NCBI GenBank assembly: GCA_964592695.1
Contig: CAZQFO010000002.1
Location: 1 to 41,721 of the forward strand
DNA from: an uncultured Candidatus Peribacteria bacterium
GTDB taxonomy: Bacteria; Patescibacteriota; Gracilibacteria; UBA4473
Length of the DNA: 41,721 nucleotides
Direction of reading: 5' to 3'
Shown here: positions 1,410 through 35,583 of the stretch, piece by piece
Layout: every line of letters starts with the position of its first letter
Numbering within the stretch: position 1 is the stretch's first letter
Translations under genes and position numbers: made by a program
The notes under the pieces: generated by a model
Databases searched by the model: none
Seen by the model: the letters and a program-made list of their open reading frames with translations, nothing else
What the model was told of the DNA's origin: nothing

Positions 1410-1663
1410 TTGTTTGATGTTTGTTGATGCAAGATGGAAGGGAGAGGAAGATTCGAGATTTGAGTCCGGTCTTCAATGCAAGGATGTGGAAATTGCTTGA
1501 AAATATTGGTTGTTTTAAACTAGATAACGCATCTAAAAGACCGGAGTCTATGGTGAAAGCAAAGAGTTGAGCTTGTGTGTTTTGTTTTTTGTTGAAAATC
1601 AGCTTGACAAAATCGAAAACATGGCCATATCAGGCTTATAATTACTTTTTAATTCTTTTAATT

Positions 1664-4076: not shown

Positions 4077-4258
4077 GGGATCTCTATCCGGCTCTGCATA
4101 TTTGTTTTTTATATTGTGGTAGAGGTTCGCCACCTTTCTCTTAACTTTAAGAGAAAGGTTTTGATGTTTGAATTATATGGAAACCTCTCTTGTTTTTTTA
4201 AGAGAGGTAGTGAAGAGCTTATGCGATAATTACTCATGTATGAAGAGCTGGAGAGATT
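4077..4258. repeat. Structured repeat copy A, upstream of the DUF559 gene
   Basis: Direct repeat of 4674-4839. Shared blocks: atctctatccggctctgc, ttcgccacctttctctta...aagagaaaggtttt, aacctctctt...aagagaggt, and ...gagc.ggagagatt. Contains two pyrimidine/purine-arm hairpins. Confidence 0.85.
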
Positions 4259-4673: not shown

Positions 4674-4839
4674 GGAATCTCTATCCGGCTCTGCGTATTT
4701 AGTTTCCTATTATGTCAGTGATTCGCCACCTTTCTCTTAATACCAAGAGAAAGGTTTTCATATTCGAAAACCTCTCTTTTAAGAGAGGTCGCGAATAGCT
4801 TGCTTTGTAGTTTATTTAACTTGCAGAGCGGGAGAGATT
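4674..4839. repeat. Structured repeat copy B, downstream of the DUF559 gene
   Basis: Direct repeat of 4077-4258. The 5' arm aatctctatccggctctgc pairs with the 3' arm gcagagcgggagagatt and encloses two hairpins (cctttctctt/aagagaaagg and cctctct/agagagg). The hairpins are followed by U-runs on both strands, so they could also act as bidirectional terminators. Confidence 0.85.
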
Positions 4840-8662: not shown

Positions 8663-9403
8663 ATGAAAAAAGCAAAAAACTTCGCACCAAATAAGGTTAT
8701 AAACCTTAAAGAAAGCCATCAATTACTTGCAGATGTAATGCGAGGTGATGGTGTTGATTTGTATAAACAAAATCCCCATACATATAGAGCGGATATCGTT
8801 ACAACAAAGTCAAGTATTGATTCTGTACTACGAGAGCATTTTGGCAGAAGATTCGATGAGTTAGATTCTCTTTCTCTACAAGAGCTTCAAGATATTCGCA
8901 CATCATTTTTACAGCACTATAAAAAATCCTGTGAAGGCAGTGAAACACTGAAGAAATGGACTCCTCTTAATCAATTAGTTGGATACACTGAAACACTGGT
9001 TGCGAGTGCTTACATGCAATTAAACGCTCAAATAGACAGGGATCTTTCCCGACAAGATGATTCTTCAACCTCAAAAACACCTTTGGAGCATACTCGAATA
9101 CAGATTTTGAATGCCCTGAAAAAGGGAAATCAAGGGAAATCAGATGATGAAATTCAAAAGGAGGTTACCGATTGTGTTACAAAGACCGGAAGAACGTTTG
9201 ATAGAAGCCTGTTTGATCAGTGGAGAACTCTATTCGAGCAGATTAATACCCCTTTACAAGAAAACTACGCAGAACATATGCAGTTTATGAATGTCAATGA
9301 ACAAATTCGAGATCTACGCTTTCGAGAACAAAAACAATCAGAATTAGTATCCTCCCAAAATTTCAGTGTAACGCCTTCACATGAAATGCGGGAAACTGCA
9401 TAA
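8663..9403 (+). CDS. Hypothetical protein (246 aa), upstream partner of the GHKL giant
   Basis: Clean ORF with no recognisable motif. Ends 7 nt before the ATG at 9411 that is in frame with the GHKL gene. Confidence 0.65.
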   Translation: MKKAKNFAPNKVINLKESHQLLADVMRGDGVDLYKQNPHTYRADIVTTKSSIDSVLREHFGRRFDELDSLSLQELQDIRTSFLQHYKKSCEGSETLKKWTPLNQLVGYTETLVASAYMQLNAQIDRDLSRQDDSSTSKTPLEHTRIQILNALKKGNQGKSDDEIQKEVTDCVTKTGRTFDRSLFDQWRTLFEQINTPLQENYAEHMQFMNVNEQIRDLRFREQKQSELVSSQNFSVTPSHEMRETA

Positions 9404-9668: not shown

Positions 9669-12600
9669 ATGAATCCCTATGTTGTCCTAGAAAAACTAAT
9701 GATTCCAAGAGTTTCTGGAAAAACAGGAAAGGAAACTATAGGGAGATTTGGTGTTGGTTTTTATACCGTTCTCGCCCATCTAAAAAAAGAAAATGACTTT
9801 GTTCGGATTAAGACAAGTGATGGGACCAGAGGACATGTTATCGAATTTCGAATTCATGAAAGATCCGGGGATATTTTTGTTCACACTGAAAGAGATGATA
9901 GCTTGTCTCAAGGAACGAACGTTCAGGTAGAGGCAGAAGATTTTGATGCTACTGATGCAGAAATATTATGCTTGGACTTACTTGAGTGTAATGACAAAAG
10001 TGAAATCATTTTGAATGAGGAGAGGATAAATACTTTGGAAGGATTTGAAACCATTCGGGGTGAAAACACTTCTGTAAAATTTACTCCTGAAACATCGGGG
10101 AAATCCAAAATATCATTACTCATAAATGGAGTTCGTATTGAGCATTTTGAAATTACAGGAGTAAATGTTTGTAGAGAATTAGTTCTTGATTTTCCTCTTG
10201 ACTGTTCACTACCAGAAAACAGGTCAGAGCTTGAAATTGACGAGGTGGCTGTTTCCAGTTTAAGAGAAATGATAGATATCGTCTTGCATGCTGATATTTC
10301 TGATGACAGTAAGGTATCTCTTTGTAATTCTCTTGATCCGCTTTTGAAAGAATTACAGCAACGCTCTCGAATGAGCAGGCAGAAAGACAATCTAAGCACT
10401 TCTTTCTATAACACCATTTCAGATTATTTTGAGAAACAAGGAAAAATTTTTCTTCCCAATGAAAAAGAATATCAGATGTTAGATGTGCCCAATGCCATTT
10501 ATGTGAATTCAAGTGTCTGTAAAACAAATCTGGAAAAAATTCCTGGAGTTGAGAAATGTCACTCGTTTTATTCAAATAAGGGCTATTCTTTATATACTGC
10601 TGATCTTAGAGAAGGTGTGAATCATTTCGTCGCAGAAATAAATAAAGAACGATTATTAATTATCGACAGGGGCGTATACGAAAGACATAGAGACTGTCCA
10701 GCAGCTCTGAATGCATATTTCTCAAGTCTAGATCCCTTAGGAAAAACTTTAGAAATAAACAAAGGAAAAATTATGGAGGATAAATATATACGTACTAGCG
10801 ACATATCTTGGACGGAAGATGATCTCGATGCATTAGATATCAACGAAGAATCTCGCGGAACGGTTTTTATGCGCGCCTCGGAGGAATCACAAAGAATGAT
10901 GATGAGAGAGGTAGCACTTAAGAGAATCGAAGTTGAGGCTATGGATGGAAACGAAATAACGTCAGCAACAGAGCGTAAAATTATTGATGAGGTAAAAACA
11001 ATAATAACTAAGTATGAAACAGAGGAGTGGAATTCATGTTTAAGTGATATCAAAAAGAAACAAAAAGTGAAGATTTTTTATGGTGATCTTGAACTATATT
11101 ATATGTCGGATTCCCATCTAAAGAGTATTGCTGTGCGGAAAAATCCGGAATTTGCACAATTATTTATAGCCTGGAAGCAGAAGCAAAGGTGGCGTGATCA
11201 GAGCCTTTTTCTTTTTATCGATGCACTGTGCAACTTGCACAGTCTTGTCGATATGAAAGATCAATATTCAGAGCAATTATTATTTAATTTTTTGAATTTA
11301 TTTGCAGATATTACTGAGAAAGCAGCAAATAATCATGGCAGAGTGCGACAGTCTTTTTTTGAAGGAACAACCAAAAGGAGGACATTTTTTGAAAGGGTGC
11401 AAAAATCATATATCGAGAAGCTTTGGAAGCTGCAGGATTATGATCTCGAGGAATTTGTTAAGTACCTGACTCCTGAGATACGGAGGTGGAGGAGATATAA
11501 AGAAGATGTTGATATTAATACTCATGATTACTCACACATTCCGCATGAAATGAGAGGTTACGTGGTATACGCTTTTGAGGGCAGAGACTTATTAAGCAGA
11601 AGAAGTTTTGATGAAGCTAGTATACAACTAGATAATTATGAGGAACGAATCACCCTTAGTACATTAGTGCAAGCTAAAAAAGATGCTGAAGGATTTTTTC
11701 AGGATTTTGAAGGAACTCCTGCTGAAATCGTAGAATTTGCTAAAAATTCACAAAGAGGCATTGACCCAAGTAAAGCGATGCGAGATATAATGCACTCAAC
11801 AAATAACCAAATATCAAATAACAACTATCTTTGGCTTCGTGAGTTATTGCAGAATAGTTTGGATGCCGTTAAAGAGCATGCTTTAGATGGAGCAGATGAA
11901 CCACCAGGTATTTCTGTTAATGCTTTTATTCAAAATAAAGAAGACGAAGAAGAATTAATCATTGAAGCGGCAGACCCAATTGGAATGGATATCCAAACCA
12001 TTATCAATTATCTGCTCATTCCAAATGAAAGTAGTAAAAAGGAGAATGAAGAACTTACTGGAAAATTTGGGCAGGGATTCTTTACTGTTTTTGGAAATGC
12101 TAAAGAAGTGCTTATAAAAACATCAAAAGGAGATGGGAGAGTTCAATATATGAAGATTGCCCCAATAAAGGATGCAGAGGGACAAACGCTTGATTTTGAT
12201 GTTGAAATGTCGGAAAAAGGCGAAATGTTTACTGGAACGGTTATACATAAAATTGTTGACACAGATATGCCAGAGGTAGAAGCCGGTTTTTGTAAAGGAG
12301 CAGTAATGAGCTATGGAGGATTAATTGATAGAAATTCCGTTCGTGTTGATTTTGGAGAAACAGAAATCAACACTCCAAAAACGGTACTTGCACAAGCAGA
12401 AATACCATCATTGGGAGGCATTAGAATATTGGATTCAAAAGAAAATGCTATGACTCAAAGTGGTTTGTTTATCAAAATGCTTGATAACGATCTATTAGCC
12501 CATGTACCACCACATCTGAGAAAGGAATTGGGCGATACAAGAATGGTTGTTGATATTCCAAAAGGAATACATCTTGTTAAATCAAGAGGAGACATTGCGA

Positions 12601-13508
12601 GAAAAAAAGAAGTTCTCCCTTTATTACAAGAGCAAATTCCTTCTTTAGTATTACAGGCTTATTTAGAGCTCGTTAAAGGAGGGAAAATTCCAGATTTTGA
12701 TGGTGTTCCATATCAATATTTTGAATTTGAAGAGTATCGTCAAGTTCCTCCTAGAATTAAACAAGATGCAAACAAGATTATTGCAGGAAAAAAGGTTGAT
12801 AGTTATGAATCATACTTACAGGAAAGACGGGATTTAAAACAACTACTGACGCTTGTACCATGTATTTCCGTGGGAGAAGATTTAATTTCTCTTAATGAGC
12901 TAGCGAAAAGGGTAGCCGAAAGCCCAGATTCAATTGATATTAATAGTCTTCCTGAATCATTGAAATGGAAAGTCATGGATGCTCTTCAAAAGAAAGAAAA
13001 GAAGAAGGATTCATCTTCAGACGAAGAAAATGAAGATGTCGCAAAAAGAGTTTGTAATGATCTGCCTGATGATCCCGAATCTAGAGAAAAATTACGCACA
13101 GTCTATGCATTTGATTATCTCGCTCGATCAATTTTTGAATTAATCGGTGCTCAAGAAATTCACCCTCAGTATTATTCTGAATCTCTTACTTACGAGGTCT
13201 GCACTTCCCCGGGAAACAATAAAATAGGCTTCAATCTTTCAAAAATGAAGTCTGTATTAGAAGGGTTAGAAGAAATAATTGAAGAAATGCCTTCAGTAGA
13301 AAGTCCTGAGGCTCAAAGAATCTTGGAGGAAATAATCAAACTTGCTACACATGCAAGACAGCATCATTTAGAAAATACTGATAAAGCAGTATACAACTAT
13401 GAATTTTTTGAGAGACAACGAGTACTTATACAAAGAATGATAGAAAATAGAGAGGTTAATTTTGAACAAATATTTTCTGAAATGTATGAAAAATTTTCGA
13501 GAGCTTAA
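9669..13508 (+). CDS. Giant protein with two Hsp90/sacsin-like GHKL (Bergerat-fold) ATPase modules
   Basis: Module 2: LRELLQNSLDAV (11835-11870), AADPIGMD, GKFGQGFFTVF (about 12060-12092). Module 1: IGRFGVGFYTV (9741-9770), while its N-box ELICNSIDA (9567-9593) and G1 box QDYGGGM lie in the same frame upstream of the track start. The open frame runs from 9432, and an ATG at 9411 is separated from it by a TAG at 9429. Confidence 0.8.
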   Translation: MNPYVVLEKLMIPRVSGKTGKETIGRFGVGFYTVLAHLKKENDFVRIKTSDGTRGHVIEFRIHERSGDIFVHTERDDSLSQGTNVQVEAEDFDATDAEILCLDLLECNDKSEIILNEERINTLEGFETIRGENTSVKFTPETSGKSKISLLINGVRIEHFEITGVNVCRELVLDFPLDCSLPENRSELEIDEVAVSSLREMIDIVLHADISDDSKVSLCNSLDPLLKELQQRSRMSRQKDNLSTSFYNTISDYFEKQGKIFLPNEKEYQMLDVPNAIYVNSSVCKTNLEKIPGVEKCHSFYSNKGYSLYTADLREGVNHFVAEINKERLLIIDRGVYERHRDCPAALNAYFSSLDPLGKTLEINKGKIMEDKYIRTSDISWTEDDLDALDINEESRGTVFMRASEESQRMMMREVALKRIEVEAMDGNEITSATERKIIDEVKTIITKYETEEWNSCLSDIKKKQKVKIFYGDLELYYMSDSHLKSIAVRKNPEFAQLFIAWKQKQRWRDQSLFLFIDALCNLHSLVDMKDQYSEQLLFNFLNLFADITEKAANNHGRVRQSFFEGTTKRRTFFERVQKSYIEKLWKLQDYDLEEFVKYLTPEIRRWRRYKEDVDINTHDYSHIPHEMRGYVVYAFEGRDLLSRRSFDEASIQLDNYEERITLSTLVQAKKDAEGFFQDFEGTPAEIVEFAKNSQRGIDPSKAMRDIMHSTNNQISNNNYLWLRELLQNSLDAVKEHALDGADEPPGISVNAFIQNKEDEEELIIEAADPIGMDIQTIINYLLIPNESSKKENEELTGKFGQGFFTVFGNAKEVLIKTSKGDGRVQYMKIAPIKDAEGQTLDFDVEMSEKGEMFTGTVIHKIVDTDMPEVEAGFCKGAVMSYGGLIDRNSVRVDFGETEINTPKTVLAQAEIPSLGGIRILDSKENAMTQSGLFIKMLDNDLLAHVPPHLRKELGDTRMVVDIPKGIHLVKSRGDIARKKEVLPLLQEQIPSLVLQAYLELVKGGKIPDFDGVPYQYFEFEEYRQVPPRIKQDANKIIAGKKVDSYESYLQERRDLKQLLTLVPCISVGEDLISLNELAKRVAESPDSIDINSLPESLKWKVMDALQKKEKKKDSSSDEENEDVAKRVCNDLPDDPESREKLRTVYAFDYLARSIFELIGAQEIHPQYYSESLTYEVCTSPGNNKIGFNLSKMKSVLEGLEEIIEEMPSVESPEAQRILEEIIKLATHARQHHLENTDKAVYNYEFFERQRVLIQRMIENREVNFEQIFSEMYEKFSRA

Positions 13509-13509
13509 A

Positions 13510-15084
13510 TCAGTTTCCTCCTTCAGAAAAATGCACCGCCTGATAAGTATACCACAACATGTCATTGTTTTTCCATGCATCGGGTTTAAATCCGGCTTTT
13601 TCGCATAAAGAACTGAGAAAAAGATCTTTATCCGGCAATTGCCCCCAAACTTGTGGCAGATACGTTGACTGTAAGCCATTCAGTTGCAATACGAGGCCGT
13701 CGATTCCAGGACGAAGTTTTTCATATTTTTCTTCCACATTTTTACCGGTTAACAAGGTCGGCACAGAGAGGATGGATATTTCTAAATCAATATCGGATAA
13801 CTCAGATGTGCTTACCGGAGAAAATCTGGAATCGTGCAGAGCTGCACTCCGTGCATTGTCTATCACGGCTTGGTATATCGATTTCTGTGGAGCTATGTAT
13901 CCGATGCATCCTCGCAGTTGATCAGATTCTTCCAGTGTCACAAAAACACCTTGTTTGGACTTCAACCTGTCATCAACTTTTGAAGAATTTATAGGGGTAA
14001 TAGGTTCATTTTTCACAGATTTATGTAGAGATTCTTGTGCCAATTTTGTCAGATATTTTTTTTGAGAATCTGTTAGGTCTAGATCTGTTTTTTCATAAAA
14101 TGCAAATGAAGCGTAGCTGACAGAATTGGTATAATCTGCAGTTAATTCTCCAGAGGTTTGGTAGTCCAGAAGTTTTGATTCGGCATCTGGAAAAAGATGT
14201 AACAAAACCGGAACAACACTTCCTCCATCTATCGTAACTTTGGAATCTCGAACGTAGTTAAAAAAGCCCTCAGCAGCTTTGTTCCGAATTAAATCAAAGG
14301 CTTTTTGGTCGATGGTTTTGATATTTGCTTCGTGGTTATCTGTAAAAGGAACATATCCATAATTTGGTCCGTAGTGTGTAAAGTCGGTACTTACTACGAG
14401 CAATGTTTTATCATCCAAGTAGGGTTTTAATGATTCGGCGATTTGTTGTACTTGCTCAAAACTATTGGCACTGCCGATCAGGACAGGAATTAATTCGAAA
14501 TCCCCCAGCACTTCCTGTAAAAATGGTAGTTCGACTTCCAGTGCATGTTCTTCGTTATGAGCGGTTTCATGAGAAAAAAAGTGATCATTTTTTAGTAGTA
14601 CTTGCGTCACTTCTGATACTTCAATATCTCCAATCGGAGTTTGATAATGTGTCACATCCGGAATAGACGCCCCTGCGAAATATTCTCGATGAGATGGTCC
14701 GATGAGGATTACTCGATCATAGTCCCATCCAGTTAATTGACCAAAACCATGAGCCGCTGTGGCTCCTGAATACGCATATCCGGCATGTGGAGTGAGAATA
14801 GCTTTTGGGGGAGCCAATTTCAAAGGGACCGTATTATCCAAATATTTATGGACTATTTTGGTTAGGTCGTTTGGATCTTTCGGATAAAACTGACCGGCGA
14901 CTGAGGGGGGGCGAATTTTTTTCATGAAGGAGGGATTATCAGGATGTGTAAAAAACCAGGATTTGAGTTGATCGAGTAGTCGTTCGAGGTTTGTGTTTTT
15001 GGTGAGGAGGGTTTGAGCAGGTACGGGTTGAACAGGAAAAAATCCAACACATGCGAATAACAGAAAAATAATGAATTTTTTCAT
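13510..15084 (-). CDS. Memo-like (AmmeMemoRadiSam protein B) fused to AMMECR1 (protein A), with an N-terminal signal peptide
   Basis: Memo motifs: AGQFYP, ILTPHAGYAYSG, ILIGPSH, EHALEVELPFLQ. C-terminal AMMECR1 motifs: GVFVTL, LRGCIGY, DSRF, STYLPQVW. The N-terminus MKKFIIFLLFACVGFFPVQPVPAQ looks like a Sec signal. Confidence 0.85.
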   Translation of the reverse strand: MKKFIIFLLFACVGFFPVQPVPAQTLLTKNTNLERLLDQLKSWFFTHPDNPSFMKKIRPPSVAGQFYPKDPNDLTKIVHKYLDNTVPLKLAPPKAILTPHAGYAYSGATAAHGFGQLTGWDYDRVILIGPSHREYFAGASIPDVTHYQTPIGDIEVSEVTQVLLKNDHFFSHETAHNEEHALEVELPFLQEVLGDFELIPVLIGSANSFEQVQQIAESLKPYLDDKTLLVVSTDFTHYGPNYGYVPFTDNHEANIKTIDQKAFDLIRNKAAEGFFNYVRDSKVTIDGGSVVPVLLHLFPDAESKLLDYQTSGELTADYTNSVSYASFAFYEKTDLDLTDSQKKYLTKLAQESLHKSVKNEPITPINSSKVDDRLKSKQGVFVTLEESDQLRGCIGYIAPQKSIYQAVIDNARSAALHDSRFSPVSTSELSDIDLEISILSVPTLLTGKNVEEKYEKLRPGIDGLVLQLNGLQSTYLPQVWGQLPDKDLFLSSLCEKAGFKPDAWKNNDMLWYTYQAVHFSEGGN

Positions 15085-15137: not shown

Positions 15138-18100
15138 TTATTCTTCCCATTTTTCTCCACCTCTTTTTGCTACATAGGCTCTCAAATTTCGTTCAATTCT
15201 ATCAGTGTTTTGAAAAAGTAATTCATCCTCTGCAAAAAATTTAGAAGCGATTTTTTGATTTGGTTTAGAGTCCTCCTCTATTCTTCCTGCTTTCTTTTTT
15301 AACTTTACAAAATCATCTATCAATTCTGAGTTTTCTTTTCCTGCATCTTTAGTAACCTTTTCCATTAGGTCATCTATCCATTCTTTAGATTCTGATGCTT
15401 TAGGAGAATATGGATTTTCTCTATCCCAAGTATTTCCTTCGAAAACTGTAACATTTTGATTTCCTTCTTTATGGTTTCCTGAGAGCACTTGTGATACTGC
15501 ATAACCTGCCTTGAGACGATTTCCAATGTTTATAAGTGTCTTATCTTTCATTTCTTTCCACCCTTTTTTACATTCTGATGGGGCTTTTTTATATTGGCTA
15601 TCTAGATCGTCTAGATAAATAACCATTTGTCGAAAATATAAATCATATCCCCTAAGCATCCGTCTCCAGAAGTCATCTGGATGTTTGCCTACCATCGTGG
15701 AATCAGTAGCTATTTGTTGCATTACGGTTCTATAGTCCCAAACTGCAGCATGCATAGCTCCATCATCGGCATCAGCTTTTCCTTTTGCGCCAACTTGTGA
15801 ACGCCCCGCACGTCCACTAATATGCTCAGAAGCCAGCATTGTGTGATAAAAAAATTTTATTGTTCCTTGTTTGCTTTTAGCGTCTTTAAATTTAAAATCC
15901 GATTCGGTCCCGATTAGTTTTCCCCATGCCATGATATCCTTGTAATTCCATTGACCTTCATGAGATCCGGGAGTTCCTTTGGGGACAATTTTTCCATTTT
16001 TTTTCCATCCGGTAGTGTCACTAAAAAATTCCATTTGTGGAACTTCTCCCAGTAGATCATTTGCAAATCTCTTTAGTATCGAATGAGAAAGAATAGTCTG
16101 ACCTAAAGTGTTTTTCATAGTTATTCCCATAATTAAATAATACCACCTCTTGTCTGGTTGCCCATTCATGCGTCCCTGTTGAAATGATTTTTTTAAAAAA
16201 CATTCATATTTCGCCGGATCTACATTTTTTGTGTCATTTCTTTTCCATCTCTGGAGCATGTCGGTCATGAGCACTTCTCGTCCTCCTTCCATTTGAAGCT
16301 CTTCGAATTCTTTTTCAAATCCATCAATTGCAGAGTTAAGTCCGCTTTTGAAATCATTATCCCAAATCTTGAATATATCACCACTATATGGCCATATACC
16401 TTTACAGGCTTTCATGAGTTTGGATTTCAGCTCAACATCTGTTAGGTTTACATCTTCTTCTATAGAAAAAATTTTACCCCCTGGATAAAGCCGGTTAAAA
16501 ACTTTCCATAGTTCCGGGTCATCCCACGAAAGAAATCCTCTTTTTATCAGTAGATTTATACAGGCTCGTACTTCATCTGCATCATTTATATTTTTTGCTG
16601 CATATAACTTTTCCCTTATGGTCCAACCTTCTAGGTTCGCGTAAGCCTTTTCAAATTCCCCTATACGTTCTTCTTCCGAGCTCTGAGCCATTCGTAAAAA
16701 TTCATTTCCATAAGTACCTTCTCCAAAAATTTTGGACCCAAGTTCTCCTATATTTTTCTCATTCTTTCTTTTTCTTCGTCGTTCCCATATTTCAAATGAT
16801 TGTTTGAGCATTCCCCATACTGATTGGAGTGTATATATTTTCACGGTCCATTTGTTTTTCTTGATTTTTCCGGTTATGGAAAGATTTTCTTTGTTCCATT
16901 TTTCGTTTCCTTCGTTCCAGTCTTTCCAGTCTTTAGTATTTTTGGCTATGACCTCAATAGCTTCCGTTACATTTTTCCAATCCGAAAACTCGTCAATAAG
17001 ACAGGACACAGTCCTCGGGTCGCCTTCTTTGTATTTTTTAATCCATTCAGGAAAAAAATCCGGTTTGCTGTATTTTTCCCAGATTTCTTCAAACCCACCC
17101 TGATAATTCTTGATATCGGCTAGTAACTTTGTATAATAATCTTTTGGAACCCCATATTTAGTATGGAAGTCATCATCATCAAATCGTTCCAAATCTTTTG
17201 TTATACTGTTTTCCAGTTCTGTAATAGTTTTTTTGTATTGATCAAATTTTTCGGTGTAGTCTTTTCTGAGTTCTTCATATTTTTCTTCCGCTTGATCTGT
17301 GTTGTTTGCGCTATCAAAAACACCTAATTTCCTTAAATATTCTAAGTTTTCTGGTTGTTGACGAAATTCATTATGCCAAGCGGTTTTTTCTTGTTGGATA
17401 AATCCTCCTGCAGAATCAAAATCTAAGTAGTTTTGTAAATTATCTAAGTTCTTTACAATGCTTTTTTGGAATTCTTCTGAATCAGTTTCTTCTGACTGAA
17501 TAGTACTATCAATTTCTTCTAGGGTTTTTTCGATTTTTGTTTCAAAAAGCTCCTCTTTAAGTCTTTCGAAATTAATACCAGAATCATTATTGAGAAATTG
17601 CAGATCATAAATTTCTTTTATCTCTGCGATCTGACTCACCAATTTAGGATATAACGCTGTCCAATTATTTTTGAATGTATCAAAATTTTGATTATCAGAC
17701 TCACTTAAACTTTCTTTTAGTGATGACAAAATATAGCTGATTTTTTTCTGTTGATGTGTGGTCTGATTGTTGAGCCATGCAGTCATTTGGTCTATGTCTC
17801 TTATGTCGTCAGTCCAGATACCTATGGCGTCCATATTTTTGGCATTGGTTCCCTCTAATGGTTCTTTGGACTTAACACGAATGCCTAAAGCTTGTTTGGC
17901 TTTTTTATTAACCGCTTTTGCTGTTCGTGCCGAATCAGATTCCAATTGAGCGTATTTATTGTAACGTTCGGCAATTTCTTCTCGAAAAAAAGGCAGTCCC
18001 GGGGAAAAATGTTTACGCATTTGATTCCAGAATTCTGTCTTTTTAGCGACATCTTCTGTGCTTGTTTTTGCATGCAATTTTCCATCTATGATATCAAAGA

Positions 18101-20027
18101 TTTCTTCTCGGAAATGAATAGTTAATCCATTTACGATTTCTTGCTGGATTTGTGGATTTTTAAGGAGATTGTTTGCGTTGTTTTTTACATAGTCTAGCAG
18201 CGATTTTGCCCCTACTTTTTCTTTTATTTTTTTTACCCATTCTTCTGGATTATCCTCATCAAAACTAACGGTTTCTAGTCCGGTTAGTACATGTTTAAAT
18301 TTATCTCGAAGTTCAAATATAGTTAATGTTTCTTCTGAATGAGGGGTATCCTTCGTAATGAAATCTTCACAACACTGAATGTCCCACAATACTTCTAAAT
18401 CACCAGAATGAAGTTGATGATTTGTAATACGTTTTTGTAGTCCTGCTTGATGTGATTTGAGTAATTTGTCGGATACTTCGGGTTGTTCTTTGAAATATTT
18501 AATATCTTCTTCGGCAATTAGTTGTTCTGTGGCTATGTCATCCCATTTTTTATTCAATTCTTCTACTTCTTTTTCCAGAGCTTTCGCTTTTTTTAATGCT
18601 TGATCTCCTTCCGGAGTTTTTTCTGCAAACTTATTCTCATCAAAATTATATCCTAAGTCTGTTAATTTTTGTCTTATAGCAGGCTTTTCGGTATCTTGGA
18701 TTTCTCGTAATCGTTCTTCTATGGGTTTTCGTTTCCAATTCCATTCGAAAAAATCTATTTTAAATTCAGGATTTGGCCAGGTGGCACTTCGTATCTCCAG
18801 GAGAGCATCATACTCCATCTTGGTAAATACTTTTGTTTTGCGTTTGTCGAAATATGCCAGAGCTCGAACGGCATTAGCATGCTTGATCTTTTCGCCTATT
18901 AGTTTTTTTTCTAATTCTATATCATTATCTTCGATAAATGGTAATATCAAATCCCACGTAAGCAATAAATCTACGTGTTGGTCTTGGTTGGTTAGATTTT
19001 CAGCAATTTTTTTAGCGAGAGCTTTTGTGTGTGTATTAATTTCATTTATAAAATGACTGTTTTGCTGATTTGCATCAGGAGATGATTTAAGAATTTTATT
19101 AATTTCCAAAACCTGAAGCATTTCAGCGGTTTTAAATTTATCAGGATTGGAAATGTCGTCTTTCCGTTTTGAATAAAAATTCCCCTGCCATTTGGCAAGT
19201 ATCTCAATAATTAATTTGCAGGTGTTGGATAATTCTGGTTTTTGTGCGAAGTAGTTGTAGAGAGTGCATATTCTGGATATTCCCGATGCAGATAAGTCCG
19301 CGTTATCATTTTTATTATCTAGTATATTTATTATTTTCTTTGTTTCCAGATCAATAAATTCTTCTAGTTTGATAACCGTTTCAGAGGTCAATAGCCCCAT
19401 CAAATTATTCGAAAATTTGACAGCAAACAGTATTCGAGGAGAAAAAACACCGGAAAGACGGCCACTGTTTTGTTCTATTTCGCAATGGTAATTTATGAGT
19501 TCTCGGAATCTATGAATTCTTCCTTCTTGTTCTTTCCCTTGTTTGCCTTCTTCATTTAGAAGTAGTTGGATATGTTTATCCAAAAATTCTACTCCACTGA
19601 CGGAGAAATGTAGAGGATTCCTGAGTATGTGATCAATTTTTGCTCTGTCTTTCTCTTTATTAATAGCTTCATTTACCTTTTCCCATGTATTGTTTTCTTC
19701 TAAGATTTTTTTGAGATTTTCATCGTCATTAGATATCGTGTTTATTAGCTTCTGAGCCCAGACTTTTTCTTCTCGTTTTAGTATGCATTGTACGAGTTTT
19801 CGATAATCATCATTTATACCTAATTTTTCAAAAGAAGATACATGTGCATGCAGCGTGTGCATATCTTCTACGCTAACATCAAGGATTGATTTATTTAGAA
19901 TTTCTTCCAGCTTCTTTTTAATGGATGTTTCTTCTTCAGTAAGCGTAAGCGGTGTGGTAGATTCCACAAAAACCCACCTCCCCTCCCGGGATTCAAAATC
20001 TCGATAGACGTGTGTCAAAAACTTCAT
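15138..20027 (-). CDS. Giant hypothetical protein (1629 aa), K/E/N-rich, no recognisable domain
   Basis: 4.9-kb uninterrupted ORF in stop-rich AT-rich DNA, with its own promoter-like site upstream. No signal peptide or TM segment visible at the N-terminus. Confidence 0.85.
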   Translation of the reverse strand: MKFLTHVYRDFESREGRWVFVESTTPLTLTEEETSIKKKLEEILNKSILDVSVEDMHTLHAHVSSFEKLGINDDYRKLVQCILKREEKVWAQKLINTISNDDENLKKILEENNTWEKVNEAINKEKDRAKIDHILRNPLHFSVSGVEFLDKHIQLLLNEEGKQGKEQEGRIHRFRELINYHCEIEQNSGRLSGVFSPRILFAVKFSNNLMGLLTSETVIKLEEFIDLETKKIINILDNKNDNADLSASGISRICTLYNYFAQKPELSNTCKLIIEILAKWQGNFYSKRKDDISNPDKFKTAEMLQVLEINKILKSSPDANQQNSHFINEINTHTKALAKKIAENLTNQDQHVDLLLTWDLILPFIEDNDIELEKKLIGEKIKHANAVRALAYFDKRKTKVFTKMEYDALLEIRSATWPNPEFKIDFFEWNWKRKPIEERLREIQDTEKPAIRQKLTDLGYNFDENKFAEKTPEGDQALKKAKALEKEVEELNKKWDDIATEQLIAEEDIKYFKEQPEVSDKLLKSHQAGLQKRITNHQLHSGDLEVLWDIQCCEDFITKDTPHSEETLTIFELRDKFKHVLTGLETVSFDEDNPEEWVKKIKEKVGAKSLLDYVKNNANNLLKNPQIQQEIVNGLTIHFREEIFDIIDGKLHAKTSTEDVAKKTEFWNQMRKHFSPGLPFFREEIAERYNKYAQLESDSARTAKAVNKKAKQALGIRVKSKEPLEGTNAKNMDAIGIWTDDIRDIDQMTAWLNNQTTHQQKKISYILSSLKESLSESDNQNFDTFKNNWTALYPKLVSQIAEIKEIYDLQFLNNDSGINFERLKEELFETKIEKTLEEIDSTIQSEETDSEEFQKSIVKNLDNLQNYLDFDSAGGFIQQEKTAWHNEFRQQPENLEYLRKLGVFDSANNTDQAEEKYEELRKDYTEKFDQYKKTITELENSITKDLERFDDDDFHTKYGVPKDYYTKLLADIKNYQGGFEEIWEKYSKPDFFPEWIKKYKEGDPRTVSCLIDEFSDWKNVTEAIEVIAKNTKDWKDWNEGNEKWNKENLSITGKIKKNKWTVKIYTLQSVWGMLKQSFEIWERRRKRKNEKNIGELGSKIFGEGTYGNEFLRMAQSSEEERIGEFEKAYANLEGWTIREKLYAAKNINDADEVRACINLLIKRGFLSWDDPELWKVFNRLYPGGKIFSIEEDVNLTDVELKSKLMKACKGIWPYSGDIFKIWDNDFKSGLNSAIDGFEKEFEELQMEGGREVLMTDMLQRWKRNDTKNVDPAKYECFLKKSFQQGRMNGQPDKRWYYLIMGITMKNTLGQTILSHSILKRFANDLLGEVPQMEFFSDTTGWKKNGKIVPKGTPGSHEGQWNYKDIMAWGKLIGTESDFKFKDAKSKQGTIKFFYHTMLASEHISGRAGRSQVGAKGKADADDGAMHAAVWDYRTVMQQIATDSTMVGKHPDDFWRRMLRGYDLYFRQMVIYLDDLDSQYKKAPSECKKGWKEMKDKTLINIGNRLKAGYAVSQVLSGNHKEGNQNVTVFEGNTWDRENPYSPKASESKEWIDDLMEKVTKDAGKENSELIDDFVKLKKKAGRIEEDSKPNQKIASKFFAEDELLFQNTDRIERNLRAYVAKRGGEKWEE

Positions 20028-20115
20028 GATAATTGGATTTAAAAATTGTGATTACCGATGCTGCTTCGGAAAAAACTTGTTTTTTTTTCCGTTAATCGCA
20101 ATTTTTTATCCAAGT

Positions 20116-20153
20116 ATTGTATCATGTATACACAAATAAATCAAGAAAGTCAA
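20116..20153 (-). promoter_or_regulatory. Overlapping sigma70-type promoters upstream of the 1629-aa gene
   Basis: Minus strand: TTGATT (20144-20139), 17 nt, then TGaTACAAT (-10 at 20121-20116). Alternatively TTGACT (20153-20148), 17 nt, then TATACA. The ~85-nt leader contains a small hairpin, ccgaagcagcatcgg. Confidence 0.5.
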
Positions 20154-20275
20154 TATTTTTAATGGTACCCCCCTTACACACGTCATCCTGAGGAGCTCTA
20201 ACAAAATAGAATAACAAATAGAAAATTACTTTTAATGAGCAATTCTCTTTCTAGCAGAAAATAATTTATCTGTTA

Positions 20276-20500
20276 TCAGAAAGGAGATTTGTATTTTAGA
20301 AGAAGTTCATTAAGCATTTCTTTTTTCATTTCATCGTCAGACAAGATCCCATTATAAGGAATGTCTTCTTCAGAGAGACTACCAAGTTCCTCCTCTAACT
20401 TTTCTCCTAAAGCCCTTTGTAATAGCTGAATTTCTTGAAGAGTTAGAAGCCTACCCAAATCTGCACTTGTCACAATTGCACCGCCTCTTAACTCTTCCAT
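20276..20500 (-). CDS. Small hypothetical acidic protein (74 aa)
   Basis: ORF between the 731-aa and 1629-aa genes on the same strand, with no known motif. Coding status is uncertain. Confidence 0.4.
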   Translation of the reverse strand: MEELRGGAIVTSADLGRLLTLQEIQLLQRALGEKLEEELGSLSEEDIPYNGILSDDEMKKEMLNELLLKYKSPF

Positions 20501-20813
20501 TTTAAAAGATTGATTAGATAATATTTATAATTTTTCGGTTCTTTCTCTTTGAGATTAAGTCTATTCAGCACAAACCTAATGGATTTATTTTTTGGCGCTT
20601 CATCAGTCTTCGCTCTACGAGCTTCGACCGACAGGCGAGGGCGACCGTCGGGAGCCTTCAGGAAAAGCGCCTTTATCGCAAATATAAACCATAATAGTTA
20701 CTACTTCTTTGCAGATGCGATGATAGTACATATTTCTATTGTGCTTGCTGAATACGAAATTAATAAACTGCATAAATACTCATCACACATGAGGTGGCCA
20801 GCTTATCAATCTC

Positions 20814-23009
20814 TTATGAATTACCGACTTTTGCCTCTCTAGGAATAAACTGATCATAGAAGTTCATCCATCTTCTTACATTTTCTCTAAATTCCAAATC
20901 AGGGATTGTTTTTCCTTTTTCCGTTTTGCACTGATTGCTAAAGGAGTTCAGCCATCTTCTTACTTTTTCTCCAAATTTCAATTTAGTAGGGATTGTTTTT
21001 CCTTTTTCTGTTTTGCACTGCCTGTTTACGAATTCAACTCCTCTCTCCCGTGTGGAAAGAAATCTTTCTTCATAATCATCCTTCCCCCATTTTGATACAT
21101 ATTCAGCTCTTTCTGGGAACCTTCCTTCTATATCTTTCATACAGATTGCCAACGCCCAATCAGAATCCATGGAATCTTTTTCTCGTTCAGACAATCCATA
21201 GGTACTCGACATACGCTTAAGTTTTTCTTTTGTATCAAAGGCTGTTGTCAAGTCTACTGGCTCTATCATTTCTGCACTTCTATATATCTTTCGCCCTTCA
21301 AAAATGATGTTAGCTACAACAGCATTAGCCCAGTAGACGTTAACATTACACTCTCTTATCATTTCTCGTAATCGTTCATATTCCGATATAAACTCCGAAG
21401 GAGCTGCGATATTCGCTACTTCAACCTCTAGACTTTCTTTAACATTTTTTGTTATCAGCTCTACACATCTATCCCTAAGAACTCCTTTTCCATGACTGTC
21501 CAAATTCTCAAAGACCTCATAAACTTGTTCCATCGATTCAGCTAGTCTTTTTTTGTCTTCCTCTCTGTTCATGTCGATGGGCTCCCTAAACAATCTTTCA
21601 ACAAATTTTGATAAATGTTCCATGATGATCGGTTGAAGATGTCTTTTTTCAGTAGATGTATTTGGATCTCCTAAGAACTCCAACAGTCCTGCTGCATTGA
21701 GGATTGCAATTTCTTGAGTTGGATCGTTTGTTATTTGTTCTACAATCTCTTCTACATTATTTGATGTCATTCCAGCTTTAGATAAGTTGGTTCTGATTTC
21801 TTCTATTAGTACTACTTTGTCTTCCTCAACTTCATGATCACGTAATATTTCCAAAACCAATATTGCAGCTATTAAGCTTTCTTTTTCTTGGCCTTCTTTT
21901 GTGCTTGCTTCTTCTCCAATAAGCGTATCCAACGCTTTTCCAGACAATCCCAAACTTCTTGTTATTTTTTTAATATCTTTTCTAAAATAATAAGGCCGTG
22001 AAGTTTTTTTGATTACTTCTTTTTTCAGATCACAAAACATTCGTCTTGCCGTCAACAATTGAGCCTTTTCTTCAAGTAAATCGAAGTCTTCCCTTGCTTC
22101 TTTGGCTTCTGTAGTATCTCCTGATTGTTCTAAATGAAATCGTACTTTTTCAATGTGTTCAGGACATAACATATAATCATGATCTTTTTTTTCGTCTGGT
22201 ATTCTTCCTCCTAAGGGAATTGCTCTCTCAATGAAGTCTAATTGTTTTTTTGCTTCTTGGAGATGAGAACCTTGTTTTATTTCTTCAAATTGATCTGCGG
22301 TAATGTCTAAAGCCTCTATCCCTACTCCCGCATGATTAATATTTTTTGTGATTTCATCATAAGTTCCACCTGTAATATCGTCAAAATATAATCCACCTAG
22401 TTCTCTGCTCATTCCTGCAAATTCTTGACCTTCAAGAAATCCAGTATCTCCAAAAGTTAGTCCTATTCCTTCTGCTCCATTTCTGAGAACATCCAAATAG
22501 CCATTAGCTACGGAAATATAGGCCTTTCTTTCGATTCCTCTTAACCCTTTTTCATTAACGCCTAATGTCTCAACAACTGCTCCAGCCTCCTTCAATTCCT
22601 TCCTTATTTTTTCAGATAATTCCTTTATGCTTTTTTCTCCTTGTATCCTGTCAGTATTTATTCCGTGAGGATGATTAATAATACTCCTTAAAACTTCTAG
22701 CGATTCAGCAGCCTCGAAAATTATGAAGACTTCATTTTCACTATGCCCTAAAAGTCTAGAAGCAACTTCATAGAGTTTTCGAGAGTTTGAATAATTTTGA
22801 TAACCAATAGGACCTGTCATACTTGGTTTTTTTCCTTTTCTTCCTCGTTTTGCTTTTTTATTGGCATGCATAACTACCTCAAGGGCTCTCCTCCTGTATA
22901 GGAAATCGGTAGATTTAAACCTTTTCAACCCTTCTCCGTCACTGAGAAGGCCTTCCTCTTGTATCTTCTGAATAAGCTCTGCATTTGTTGTGAAAAATTC
23001 TTGTTTCAT
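20814..23009 (-). CDS. Hypothetical protein (731 aa) with a C-terminal tandem repeat
   Basis: Long clean ORF. Basic patch KKAKRGRKGKKPS near the N-terminus. The C-terminus carries two copies of QCKTEKGKTIP...VRRW[LM]N, encoded by a tandem DNA repeat. No recognisable catalytic domain. Confidence 0.8.
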   Translation of the reverse strand: MKQEFFTTNAELIQKIQEEGLLSDGEGLKRFKSTDFLYRRRALEVVMHANKKAKRGRKGKKPSMTGPIGYQNYSNSRKLYEVASRLLGHSENEVFIIFEAAESLEVLRSIINHPHGINTDRIQGEKSIKELSEKIRKELKEAGAVVETLGVNEKGLRGIERKAYISVANGYLDVLRNGAEGIGLTFGDTGFLEGQEFAGMSRELGGLYFDDITGGTYDEITKNINHAGVGIEALDITADQFEEIKQGSHLQEAKKQLDFIERAIPLGGRIPDEKKDHDYMLCPEHIEKVRFHLEQSGDTTEAKEAREDFDLLEEKAQLLTARRMFCDLKKEVIKKTSRPYYFRKDIKKITRSLGLSGKALDTLIGEEASTKEGQEKESLIAAILVLEILRDHEVEEDKVVLIEEIRTNLSKAGMTSNNVEEIVEQITNDPTQEIAILNAAGLLEFLGDPNTSTEKRHLQPIIMEHLSKFVERLFREPIDMNREEDKKRLAESMEQVYEVFENLDSHGKGVLRDRCVELITKNVKESLEVEVANIAAPSEFISEYERLREMIRECNVNVYWANAVVANIIFEGRKIYRSAEMIEPVDLTTAFDTKEKLKRMSSTYGLSEREKDSMDSDWALAICMKDIEGRFPERAEYVSKWGKDDYEERFLSTRERGVEFVNRQCKTEKGKTIPTKLKFGEKVRRWLNSFSNQCKTEKGKTIPDLEFRENVRRWMNFYDQFIPREAKVGNS
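20862..21020. repeat. Tandem duplication of about 85 bp inside the 3' end of the 731-aa gene
   Basis: The block gttca.ccatcttcttac.ttttctc.aaatt...gggattgtttttcctttttc.gttttgcactg occurs at 20862-20933 and again at 20946-21020. Confidence 0.8.
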
Positions 23010-23344: not shown

Positions 23345-23745
23345 TAATTTTAATAAAGGGCCCCTCCTGGCATGAACAAGCCAGGAGGGTGAAGGACAGA
23401 TCACCAGATCGAATTAAGGAAATCCATCCTCGGCTCTGGGACGAATCCATTTCTGATTCGCATTGGATGTTGGTTCACAATGCTAAACCAGCGCGGTCAT
23501 CGTTGCCGGATAGTGAACCAGACACAATTTCACAGGTCCCTACCCCCCCACTGGTCAGCCCGGTATTATTTTTCATGCTCCAGGAGCCCCAATTGCTATT
23601 TTGGGATGTACTACCCCCATAAAAAGGTGCTGGCATGACTTTCCTCCTTCAACTAAAGAAATATTCAAGGCTCTCCTCTCCATGAGTAAGAGCGAAAAAA
23701 CTTCAATTATACATGAAGTCTTATCGCTCCTACTCAGTTAATCTA
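23345..23745 (-). ncRNA. rnpB: RNase P RNA (bacterial type); boundaries approximate
   Basis: Minus strand carries the universal P4 5' strand GGAGGAAAGUC (23647-23637), preceded by a P3-like hairpin (23735-23684). It also has GACCAGUG, a G-rich GGGGGGGUAGGG block, and CCUGGCUUG as a candidate P4 3' strand near 23375. The region is a GC-rich island in AT-rich DNA. The plus-strand ORF 23389-23622 is therefore spurious. Confidence 0.7.
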
Positions 23746-26148: not shown

Positions 26149-27291
26149 TTACAGCTCAGCAATAAACTCATCAAACAAATATTCCGCATCCTCTGGACCA
26201 GCACATGCTTCTGGGTGAAATTGGACTGAAAATATTGGTTTGGATTTATGTCGAATTCCTTCTACTGATCCGTCATTTAAGTTTTTGAACCAGACTTCAA
26301 AATCAGAAGGTAAGGATTTGGCATCAACTTCGTATCCATGATTTTGTGTAGTGATCAAACAACGCCCTGCATTTATTTTTAATTCTTAATTTTTCATTTT
26401 CAATTCGATAACTGGCTGATTTACCCCCCGATGTCCATATTTCATCTTTTTGGTTTTTCCTCCTGCTGCTAATGAGAGGATTTGATTTCCCAAACAAATT
26501 CCAAATATTGGAATATTCTTCTCTAGTGCTTGCTTTGTAATCTCAATAGTTTCAGTTACTTTTTCTGGATCTCCGGGACCATTGGAAATAAACAGTCCAT
26601 CAATCCCTCGACTGAGTTCAGGACAGGATTTTTTATCTAAATCAAATGGCGATTGATTAAACGGTAATCGAATAATTCGAATCCCTCGATTCAAAAAATT
26701 TCTAAAGATTCCGTTTTTAGCTCCACAGTCTAGGAACACAATAGTTTTATTTATTTTTCCTGTAGAGGCGCCCAAACTGGGTGACTCTACAGGATTTAAG
26801 ATTTCTATTTTTTTAGGAGAAACCTCAGGAACAAATCGACCATTGAGTGGATCTTCAAAAACTTTAGGTTTTGTATCATTTATAGCTCCCAGGATCGTCC
26901 CGTGTTCTCGTAATTCTTGGGTTAGTTCTCTCGTATCGACACCAGATATGGCAGGAATGCCTTCCTCTTTTAACCAGTTGGCAAACTGTTGGATGGAATT
27001 TTCATGAGAATGTTTTATGGCATCTTCAGTAAGTATAACTCCTCTTGCCCAGATGCGATTACTTTCGTACATTTCGTCTATACCTTTAACCAATTCTTTT
27101 TTATCAAATACTCCGTAATTTCCGATCAGTGGGAATGTAAAAACAATGATCTGTCCAAAATAACTCGGATCCGTCAGTGTTTCTAGATATCCGGTCATGC
27201 CGGTAGTAAAAACAACCTCTCCTTCAGTGGTTTTATTTGCTCCAAATGAATGTCCTTCGTATGATTTTTCGTTTGCTAGGTAGAGTTTCAT
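26149..27291 (-). pseudogene. carA: Carbamoyl-phosphate synthase small (glutaminase) subunit, interrupted by an in-frame TAA
   Basis: The 301-aa and 69-aa ORFs are in the same frame, separated by a TAA at 26388-26386. N-terminal CarA domain, catalytic GICLGNQ, YGHRGVNQP, then [11 protein letters not shown] and FHPEA after the stop. No carB is present in the window. Confidence 0.85.
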
Positions 27292-27312: not shown

Positions 27313-27924
27313 TTAGTAGACATCAATTAATTCTGGGAAATTTAATGAAGTGTAATGCCAATCCTCTGAAAGCCTATGTTTTATGAAGTTGTATGCAGTA
27401 TATCCGTGGTGTTCAATAAGATCTTTTTCGTTTCTGATGATGTGATCGTGGAAAGATTTTTGCCATTTGAATTTTTTAAAAGAAGAAACTGATTCATATT
27501 TTTTATGAAATAATCTGTGAAACTGTTCAACTTGTTTATCAAATTTTTCTAACAACTTTCGTTCCTGCCAGAAAGCGCGGTCTGCAGATCGCGCTTTCTC
27601 ATCGAGGTTGTATCTTTTGATAGAAAAATCATCTAACATAACTCTATTCGCATTTCTAGAAAAATTTGTTTTTAAAGATCTCATAATTTCAGATAAATCC
27701 TTACCATTTTCCACTTTCAAAACCATATGAAAGTGGTCATAGCACAAACAAAAAGAATTAATCTCAAATGATTTTAGTTTTTTGCACAATATCAACTCCT
27801 CAATCCATAAATCACAAAATATTGGTTCTTTAAAAAATAGAGATTTATCCTGAGTATTCACTGTCACGAAATAGGGATACTCATGCTGATAAATCCTCTT
27901 TTGAGAGTTTTTGTACACCATCAT
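27313..27924 (-). CDS. Y1 HUH transposase-like protein (IS200/RayT-like, COG1943-type), apparently without IS ends
   Basis: HUH motif in YDHFHMVLKV. C-terminal YTAYNFIKHRL...WHYTSL resembles the catalytic-Tyr region of RayT-like proteins. Only 21 nt and 4 nt separate it from its neighbours. Confidence 0.65.
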   Translation of the reverse strand: MMVYKNSQKRIYQHEYPYFVTVNTQDKSLFFKEPIFCDLWIEELILCKKLKSFEINSFCLCYDHFHMVLKVENGKDLSEIMRSLKTNFSRNANRVMLDDFSIKRYNLDEKARSADRAFWQERKLLEKFDKQVEQFHRLFHKKYESVSSFKKFKWQKSFHDHIIRNEKDLIEHHGYTAYNFIKHRLSEDWHYTSLNFPELIDVY

Positions 27925-35439: not shown

Positions 35440-35583
35440 GGGCTACCGCTACGCGGAATTAAAAAATGAAAAATTAAAGTAACAATTCAGCAGTCACATA
35501 AGAAGTCTGCAGTATCATCATATCTGCAAAGGAGCCGTAACTATTATGATTGACATTTGCACGTCTTGCTTTTTACCAACTCT

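Follow-up and report, generated by a model that had tools for sequence, protein, structure and literature searches.

A Giant Helical Protein of an Uncultured Candidatus Peribacteria Bacterium Belongs to a Conserved Patescibacteria Family with a Possible Place in an Envelope Apparatus

Introduction

To our knowledge, about half of the genes of Patescibacteria have no assigned function, and except in Saccharibacteria little is known of how members of the group attach themselves to other cells and exploit them. Giant proteins of unknown role are common in this group. One of them, a protein of 1629 amino acids (aa), is the subject of the present report. It is encoded on the minus strand (positions 15138–20027) of a 41,721-nucleotide (nt) stretch of DNA from an uncultured Candidatus Peribacteria bacterium (contig CAZQFO010000002.1 of assembly GCA_964592695.1), the whole of which is called here the window. 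The family to which the giant belongs is designated F0, a name coined for this work; the family is uncurated and was defined from an exhaustive HMMER scan.

Described secretion systems provide the nearest comparisons for the gene cluster, F3-Fmid-F2-F0-F1, within which the F0 genes of many relatives are located, whereas the copy in the window lies outside such a cluster. The Firmicutes-type type VII secretion system (T7SSb) comprises EssA, EssB, EsaA and EssC. By analogy, its small transmembrane protein, bitopic protein, polytopic protein and cytoplasmic protein of more than 1000 aa, followed by a large exported substrate, would be comparable to the F0 cluster. The T7SSb differs in that P-loop domains of the FtsK/SpoIIIE type are absent from F0, that a search for a WXG100 protein was negative, and that neither sequence nor fold is similar. 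The monoderm (MPF-FATA type) type IV secretion system (T4SS; PMC12102498) is the other comparison, as the cluster of the relatives brings together in one operon a small transmembrane protein, a large surface protein and, also large, a polytopic membrane protein whose tail is cytoplasmic. However, VirB4 and the coupling ATPase are absent from the F0 cluster, and F0 itself resembles no T4SS component. The same 2025 survey (PMC12102498) reported that VirB6 homologues are undetectable in the class Gracilibacteria, and that the homologues of VirB3 and TrsD do not adjoin virB4 in this class.

Sequence Relatives of the Giant Protein

The first-pass annotation of this DNA had taken the giant for an ORFan. 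Using residues 430–1629 as the query, the exhaustive HMMER scan retrieved 255 proteins at E ≤ 1e-3, of which 60 also reached E ≤ 1e-30, and this disposes of the description. The best matches (E from 3e-214 to 1e-100) were with about 25 proteins of 1600–2100 aa, and about 60 relatives, also of 1600–2100 aa, could be aligned over nearly their full length. When the search was subsequently repeated with the full protein, co-linear matches were found in the N-terminal 450 and the C-terminal 800–1150 residues. Judged by its sequence, the giant is thus a member of a conserved family and no ORFan. A word-index search of 5.8 billion proteins had returned only the giant itself, and the same was true when it was repeated with an alignment of 150 sequences; relatives showing 36–40% identity over more than 1000 residues, detected by HMMER, were missed. 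The likely explanation is that K/E-rich words filled the list of 8000 candidates. The absence of homologues in a word-index search is therefore weak evidence, and the present case is a methodological warning.

All the named members of the family are from Patescibacteria (Peribacteria, Gracilibacteria and Altimarinota). A scan with one genome per species yielded 26 loci, from metagenome-assembled genomes labelled Ca. Peribacteria, Ca. Gracilibacteria, Ca. Altimarinota or Patescibacteria, with the exception of two loci carrying only the generic labels "bacterium" and "uncultured bacterium". The closest relatives are Peribacteria, with 36–41% identity. Among the members, the 1791 aa hypothetical protein MCK5461307.1 (P0009) of a Candidatus Gracilibacteria bacterium matches the giant over much of its length (E = 4e-149), whereas the 1409 aa hypothetical protein MEK7672827.1 (P0098) of a Patescibacteria group bacterium matches in the core only (E = 1.9e-17); both share the motifs of the core described below. 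These and similar entries have not been studied and bring no functional information. No description of the family was found in the literature, the Vampirococcus paper mentioning giant membrane proteins in general terms only. F0 is conserved and vertically inherited, it stands outside every curated family and solved fold that was searched, and its conserved partners are equally dark.

An N-terminal motif, MKFL...RDF...W..VF, is common to the giant and its relatives. This shared motif favours the ATG at position 20027 over the start of the 1609-aa database call. As stated by the first-pass annotation, the protein is rich in K, E and N (11.5%, 10.3% and 6.4%, respectively), and no transmembrane or signal-like segment was seen in a hydropathy scan. 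The sequence entropy is high throughout, so that the giant is not a low-complexity protein.

The Conserved Core and the Predicted Structure

Three parts could be distinguished in F0: a conserved N-terminus, a variable helical middle and a core, about 430 residues long, that contains near-invariant charged positions. In the giant the core spans residues ~1062–1480 (15588–16844, minus strand), as delimited from the HMMER matches and the conservation of alignment columns. The distant and shorter members (1000–1800 aa) share only this core, from residue ~1062 to ~1345 and up to ~1480, corresponding to positions 633–916 and up to ~1040 of the 430–1629 query. The family consensus includes the motifs DE.KAC..LL..KG..RWDDP.LW, VDP..YE, GK...YYLI.G and R..K..R......DHDD. 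Thirty-nine columns were conserved at 75% or more among at least 110 sequences, including E1079, R1087, G1097, E1109, E1118, D1151, A1155, G1164, W1168, D1169, D1170 and W1174 in the first part of the core, then P1271, E1275, G1285, G1301, P1330, G1345, D1364, R1406, D1419, D1421 and D1422. R1406 is near-invariant in the family. The D-x-D-D motif at residues 1419–1422 (15762–15773, minus strand) reads DADD in the window; DHDD is present in 126 of the 147 members having a residue at this column, and the histidine is replaced in the other 21 (14%), here by alanine (H1420 to A).

The loss of the motif histidine could have designated the copy in the window as a dead one. This was rejected, as 14% of the members also lack the histidine and the overall conservation is normal: 33 of the 39 conserved columns are kept (six deviations, against a family median of four). 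A reading of DHDD/DxDD as the signature of an HD-domain phosphohydrolase or a class II terpene cyclase was also discarded, the giant and 36 relatives giving no Pfam match of this kind. More generally, no Pfam domain was found in any of the 36 distant F0 members, and PDB searches with the sequence and the family profile produced only noise of the coiled-coil type against the N-terminal helical region.

The structure was predicted by AlphaFold2 with family alignments, the giant being modelled as two parts, residues 1–830 and 830–1629. The mean predicted local distance difference test score (pLDDT) was 76.7 for the first part and 88.8 for the second, with a predicted template modelling score (pTM) of 0.72 in both cases, and the pLDDT was mostly above 90 in the conserved core. 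Both models are essentially all alpha-helix; instead of long coiled coils, they consist of compact domains of helices around a polar core that is conserved. The C-terminal part is a folded conserved domain, in agreement with the first-pass annotation, which had considered it globular and not low-complexity. Foldseek searches with the two halves against 350,000 PDB chains, and with the C-terminal half against BFVD, yielded nothing at E ≤ 1e-3. The sole neighbours were alpha-solenoid scaffolds (karyopherins, catenins, HEAT/ARM proteins), which like the giant are all-helical and repeat-like; with E values of 0.03–0.6, a template modelling score of 0.22 or less and a root-mean-square deviation of about 20–50 Å, these matches are generic helical noise and no sign of homology. 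An HD-domain or an (alpha/alpha)6-barrel fold was rejected for the giant on the same basis, no such structure having been returned by Foldseek against the PDB.

In the model, the conserved charged residues of the core cluster at helix ends and in loops, and the core looks like a binding or catalytic pocket. This clustering of near-invariant residues within 430 residues would suit a free-standing, soluble, all-alpha enzyme, whose pocket would be formed by DxDD, R1406 and Glu/Asp/Lys residues and which might perform, for instance, a metal-dependent phospho- or glycosyl-transfer or a hydrolysis; the linkage to membrane protein genes described below would then reflect a shared pathway and not a complex. 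The persistence of F0 alone in several genomes agrees with such an enzyme. Nevertheless, no likeness to any enzyme fold or family was apparent by sequence or structure, 21 of 147 members, that of the window included, carry another residue in place of the DHDD histidine, and a helical scaffold of 1600–2100 residues is unusual for a simple enzyme. We consider this explanation rather unlikely.

Gene Context of F0 in Relatives and Proposed Role

The gene context was analysed in 30 non-redundant related loci and in locus L044, with flanks of up to 10 kb whose open reading frames (ORFs) were clustered. A conserved order on the same strand, F3-Fmid-F2-F0-F1, emerged, F0 being the fourth or fifth gene. 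F3 is a protein of about 170 aa with one or two transmembrane segments and a W.A.DYHPH motif. Fmid (500–850 aa) is bitopic, with one transmembrane segment, and is sometimes followed by a protein of 320–400 aa. F2 (650–850 aa) has a signal peptide, about seven transmembrane segments and a long C-terminal tail. F1 carries a signal peptide and is at least 3200 aa long, reaching 4443 aa in one record (L007). Of the 21 loci whose upstream sequence was long enough to be informative, 13 have F2 upstream of F0 on the same strand; F1 was found downstream of F0 in 13 of 26. The gap before F0 in the conserved clusters measures 8–165 nt. The cluster was seen in L008, L014, L017, L020 (1492–22321), L021, L025, L026, L028, L029, L031, L037, L044 and L045, and in three distant short-form loci it directly follows rpsF-ssb-rpsR.

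None of the proteins of the cluster reached a Pfam gathering threshold, and only two sub-threshold matches were recorded. One of 12 F2 members matched TrbL/VirB6 (PF04610) with an E value of 8e-5 and 23 bits, against a cut-off of 25.9, and an F1 protein matched Glyco_hydro2_C5 at 26 bits, below the cut-off of 32. PDB sequence searches with F1, F2 and Fmid returned nothing. The families AAA_10, VirB4 and TraG were absent from the three-gene block of the window and from the cluster genes of the relatives, the sole ATPase of this type being that of one locus, where its gene lies on the opposite strand at a distance of 8.7 kb.

The situation is different in the window. Upstream of F0 there is no F2, and ORFs for a soluble 731-aa protein and a 74-aa protein occupy this place; downstream, a Memo-AMMECR1 gene is present and not F1. 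Hidden Markov models (HMMs) of F2, F3, Fmid and F4 gave no credible match among the window proteins, with a best E of 0.015 or worse and few bits, and no credible F1 match exists in the window. The sole match below 0.001, between the F1 HMM and the IS110 transposase at 40450–41247 (E = 7e-4, 6.9 bits), is regarded as spurious. In the closest relatives (L003, L005 and L006), F0 stands alone and its neighbour is a convergent folD.

We propose tentatively, and with a confidence that stops somewhat short of an even chance, that F0 is the cytoplasmic part of an envelope or surface apparatus specific to Patescibacteria, and that the three-gene block of the window is not one system. The neighbourhood of the genes in other genomes is the only ground from which we infer both the apparatus and its link to a surface protein. 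In this model, F0 would be a scaffold or a working subunit on the cytoplasmic side of an apparatus that spans the envelope, and would dock on the polytopic membrane protein F2, its conserved charged core serving as a docking or catalytic site. F0 would also take part in assembling, exporting or anchoring F1, the giant surface protein by which these episymbionts probably make contact with other cells. In the lineage of the window and in the closest Peribacteria, the F0 gene would have become separated from its cluster partners. A host-interaction role, which the first-pass annotation had advanced for the block, is plausible for the F0 family through its gene context in other genomes only.

Several observations weigh against this proposal. 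F0 has no membrane partners in 8 of the 21 informative loci, including the window and the nearest relatives; it can therefore work, or at least persist, away from them. The cluster encodes no ATPase or other source of energy, and none of its components has a recognisable domain, the sole hint being the sub-threshold TrbL/VirB6 match in 1 of 12 F2 members. In addition, the conserved acidic motif could equally fit a free-standing enzyme.

The TrbL/VirB6 match leads to another explanation, according to which F3-Fmid-F2-F0 would be an extremely diverged membrane translocon of the monoderm-type T4SS of the clade, with F0 as a lineage-specific accessory. The match itself speaks for it, as do the polytopic character of F2 with its long C-terminal tail and the small size of F3, with its one or two transmembrane segments like VirB3 or PrgI; it would also fit what the 2025 survey reported on VirB6, VirB3 and TrsD. 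However, the match concerns a single F2 member and is sub-threshold, a search of the PDB with the F2 profile brought up neither VirB6 nor TrwI chains, F3 has no PrgI or VirB3 match, and no VirB4 or coupling-protein ATPase belongs to the cluster. A T4SS origin is accordingly held to be improbable. It is also to be considered that F0 might have nothing to do with secretion and be a cytoskeletal or scaffolding protein that serves to shape or divide the cell or to organise the nucleoid. An all-helical, very long, K/E-rich and cytoplasmic protein could play such a part, and the position of the short-form clusters right after rpsF-ssb-rpsR is a housekeeping neighbourhood. The predicted structure points the other way, with compact helical domains and a polar core instead of long coiled coils, as does the tight linkage to membrane and secreted proteins and not to division genes. 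This makes a cytoskeletal function quite improbable, and a cytoplasmic part of an envelope apparatus is the role that we tentatively prefer for F0.

The Three-Gene Block of the Window

The giant is the last of three consecutive minus-strand genes, all of which are present in the ORF list as the first-pass annotation had described them. The 731-aa ORF (20814–23009) encodes a soluble protein without transmembrane segment or assigned family. The 74-aa ORF (20276–20500) encodes an acidic product with 16 D+E for 8 K+R, as had been noticed, and ends with a TGA stop directly followed by TAA. The 1629-aa F0 ORF encodes the cytoplasmic, all-alpha-helical giant. The spacers are of 313 nt between the 731-aa and 74-aa ORFs and of 248 nt between the 74-aa ORF and the giant. 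A gap of 53 nt separates the stop of the giant from the gene of a secreted Memo-AMMECR1 fusion (13510–15084, minus strand), recognised by Pfam (E = 4e-60 and 4e-45) and carrying an N-terminal signal-like segment; the gap and the nature of this neighbour agree with the earlier description, and the gene is possibly co-transcribed with that of the giant. That no family can be assigned to the three proteins also held, in profile searches for all three and in structure searches for the giant. Searches against Pfam, NCBIfam, PADLOC, PHROGs and PDB sequences gave no match for any of them, the Pfam output consisting of sub-threshold noise (E = 0.16–0.9).

Codon usage identifies the 731-aa and 1629-aa ORFs as native and truly coding genes. 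It gives no support to the 74-aa ORF, whose in-frame score (0.046) is lower than one of the off-frame scores (0.162); this ORF is annotated as a gene in other assemblies from the same population. An alternative code with UGA read as glycine was envisaged because some relatives are labelled Gracilibacteria. It was rejected: the real genes of the window have no in-frame TGA, so the standard genetic code applies, and with table 11 the giant ORFs of the relatives are uninterrupted. Obg, PNPase, S15, HflX, CarA, TilS, RuvB, TatD and AhpC are encoded around the block, which is therefore part of a bacterial chromosome.

The 731-aa protein displays the basic N-terminal patch (KKAKRGRKGKKP) and the duplicated C-terminal unit mentioned by the first-pass annotation. 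At the DNA level, the duplication corresponds to a tandem arrangement of direct repeats at the 3' end of the gene (20858–21020), with a spacing of 84–87 nt and an identity of 84–97%; it is very recent. A word-index search of the 5.8 billion proteins returned only the protein itself, and no relative was found by a pattern scan of metagenomes or by tblastn against phages or plasmids. The word-index result is weak, because the same search missed the relatives of the giant at 40% identity. The possibility that the protein might be a diverged F2 was discarded: BLASTP gave nothing, the F2 HMM scored -0.3 bits, and F2 has about seven transmembrane segments as compared with none here. The 731-aa gene is thus real and native, with a soluble product and no demonstrated tie to F0. 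Similarly, the 74-aa ORF is not the counterpart of an ORF of the same size in L026, the two sequences being plainly unrelated by eye.

It had been suggested that the three genes form one novel host-interaction or conflict module, expressed and working together. They are indeed adjacent, on the same strand and all unassignable, and their arrangement is identical in the other copies of the block, which come from assemblies of the same population. These assemblies are 99.97% identical, with a single SNP (single-nucleotide polymorphism) inside the block, which is synonymous and gives no basis for a dN/dS ratio, and consequently carry no evolutionary information on it. Synteny in relatives, whose absence the first-pass annotation had named as evidence against a shared system, was contradicted, as no 731-aa or 74-aa homologue was detected by tblastn and HMM in the 30 loci and L044; the Memo-AMMECR1 fusion, the 1279-aa neighbour described below and HflX relatives were likewise absent from these loci by the same searches. 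As for a conflict or defence function, there were no PADLOC matches for the three proteins, no Pfam defence or toxin model was encountered, and the 731-aa protein had no phage or plasmid match. The spacers are long, as compared with the 8–165 nt before F0 in the clusters of relatives, and hold a repeat element and a promoter-like site, and the coding support for the 74-aa ORF is missing. A common module of the three genes is very improbable. Because no 731-like or 74-like gene is found near F0 in relatives, the block is not a conserved unit; it consists of a conserved gene beside lineage-specific neighbours.

Spacer Elements

The region upstream of the giant (20028–20144, minus strand) was examined by scanning and folding, a near-consensus promoter and a leader hairpin having been attributed to it. 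The promoter-like TTGATT-17-TACAAT with a TG (20144–20116) matches the consensus at 9 of 12 positions, and sites of this grade occur at chance frequency in the region (35 found for 35.1 expected). The leader is on firmer ground: the 98-nt stretch immediately upstream of the ATG (20028–20125), which takes in the leader of ~85 nt given by the first-pass annotation and its A-run/T-run hairpin, has a folding energy of -21 kcal/mol (z = -4.69 as compared with shuffles). A 78-nt GC-rich element with a GGCGCTT/AAGCGCC closing stem (20595–20672, minus strand) lies in the 313-nt spacer that separates the 731-aa ORF from the 74-aa ORF. Its GC content is 63%, against 38% for the spacer, as had been pointed out, whereas its fold (-33 kcal/mol, z = -1.75) is not significant. 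Rfam and tRNA scans of the spacers, including this element, gave nothing. Directly upstream of the GC-rich element lies one copy of a 76-nt repeat (20678–20753, minus strand), the second copy of which is on the other strand at 35485–35560 (79% identity). Both copies begin approximately 45–60 nt 3' of a stop codon, that of the 731-aa gene and that of ahpC, in the same orientation relative to the gene. A function as a 3' element or as a promoter module is conceivable for the repeat.

Upstream of the 731-aa gene, an otherwise empty gap of 975 nt contains an ORF of 53 aa rich in Gly, Ser, Thr and Asn (MPAPFYGGSTSQNSNWGSWSMKNNTGLTSGGVGTCEIVSG..., 23475–23636, minus strand), with a strong AGGAGG ribosome-binding site before its start. 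The best terminator-like hairpin of the region (23362–23389, minus strand; 10 bp, 8 of them GC) is located 3' of this ORF. No Rfam match was obtained for the ORF and hairpin, and the ORF may specify a short secreted peptide or belong to an RNA.

Other Features of the Window

Convergent with the Memo-AMMECR1 gene, a 1279-aa protein (9669–13508, plus strand) carries two sacsin/HSP90-like GHKL ATPase modules, one marked by GRFGVGFYTV close to the N-terminus and the other by GKFGQGFFTVF around residue 790. It matches the NCBIfam sacsin P-loop domain (E = 5e-10) and, weakly, TmtA in PADLOC (E = 4e-4). Two further plus-strand ORFs, of 808 aa (1577–4003) and 246 aa (8663–9403), have no Pfam match and no similarity to the block proteins or to the families of the F0 cluster. 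Between the 808-aa ORF and pnp, two direct copies of approximately 95 nt (4077–4172 and 4674–4768) are located 596 nt apart with an identity of 79–88%, each of them holding a 28-nt palindrome, ACCTTTCTCTTAA...TTAAGAGAAAGGT.

The carA gene (26386–27291, minus strand) shows four clustered base differences at 26369–26388 as compared with all the other assemblies of the population. These differences create a TAA, and CarA is 301 aa long here and 380 aa elsewhere; the truncation reflects either variation between strains or a local error of the assembly. Mobile elements are represented among the genes found in the window only by an IS200-like Y1 transposase-related gene (27313–27924, minus strand; weak Pfam match) and by the IS110-family transposase gene (40450–41247, minus strand), neither of which adjoins the block.

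Significance for Patescibacteria

An apparent orphan has now become a defined family, with a confident model without known relative, near-invariant residues and a conserved gene cluster. A more ambitious proposal, which we regard as doubtful, is that F0, F3, Fmid, F2 and the secreted protein of 3000–4400 aa constitute an unrecognised envelope machine specific to Patescibacteria, in the form either of a new secretion or attachment system or of the diverged T4SS translocon "missing" in the class Gracilibacteria. Such a machine would build a giant structure for episymbiotic contact, with F0 as its cytoplasmic engine or platform of novel fold. By associating a polytopic membrane protein with secreted proteins that are among the largest in these genomes, the F0 cluster would be a candidate apparatus for cell contact or export.

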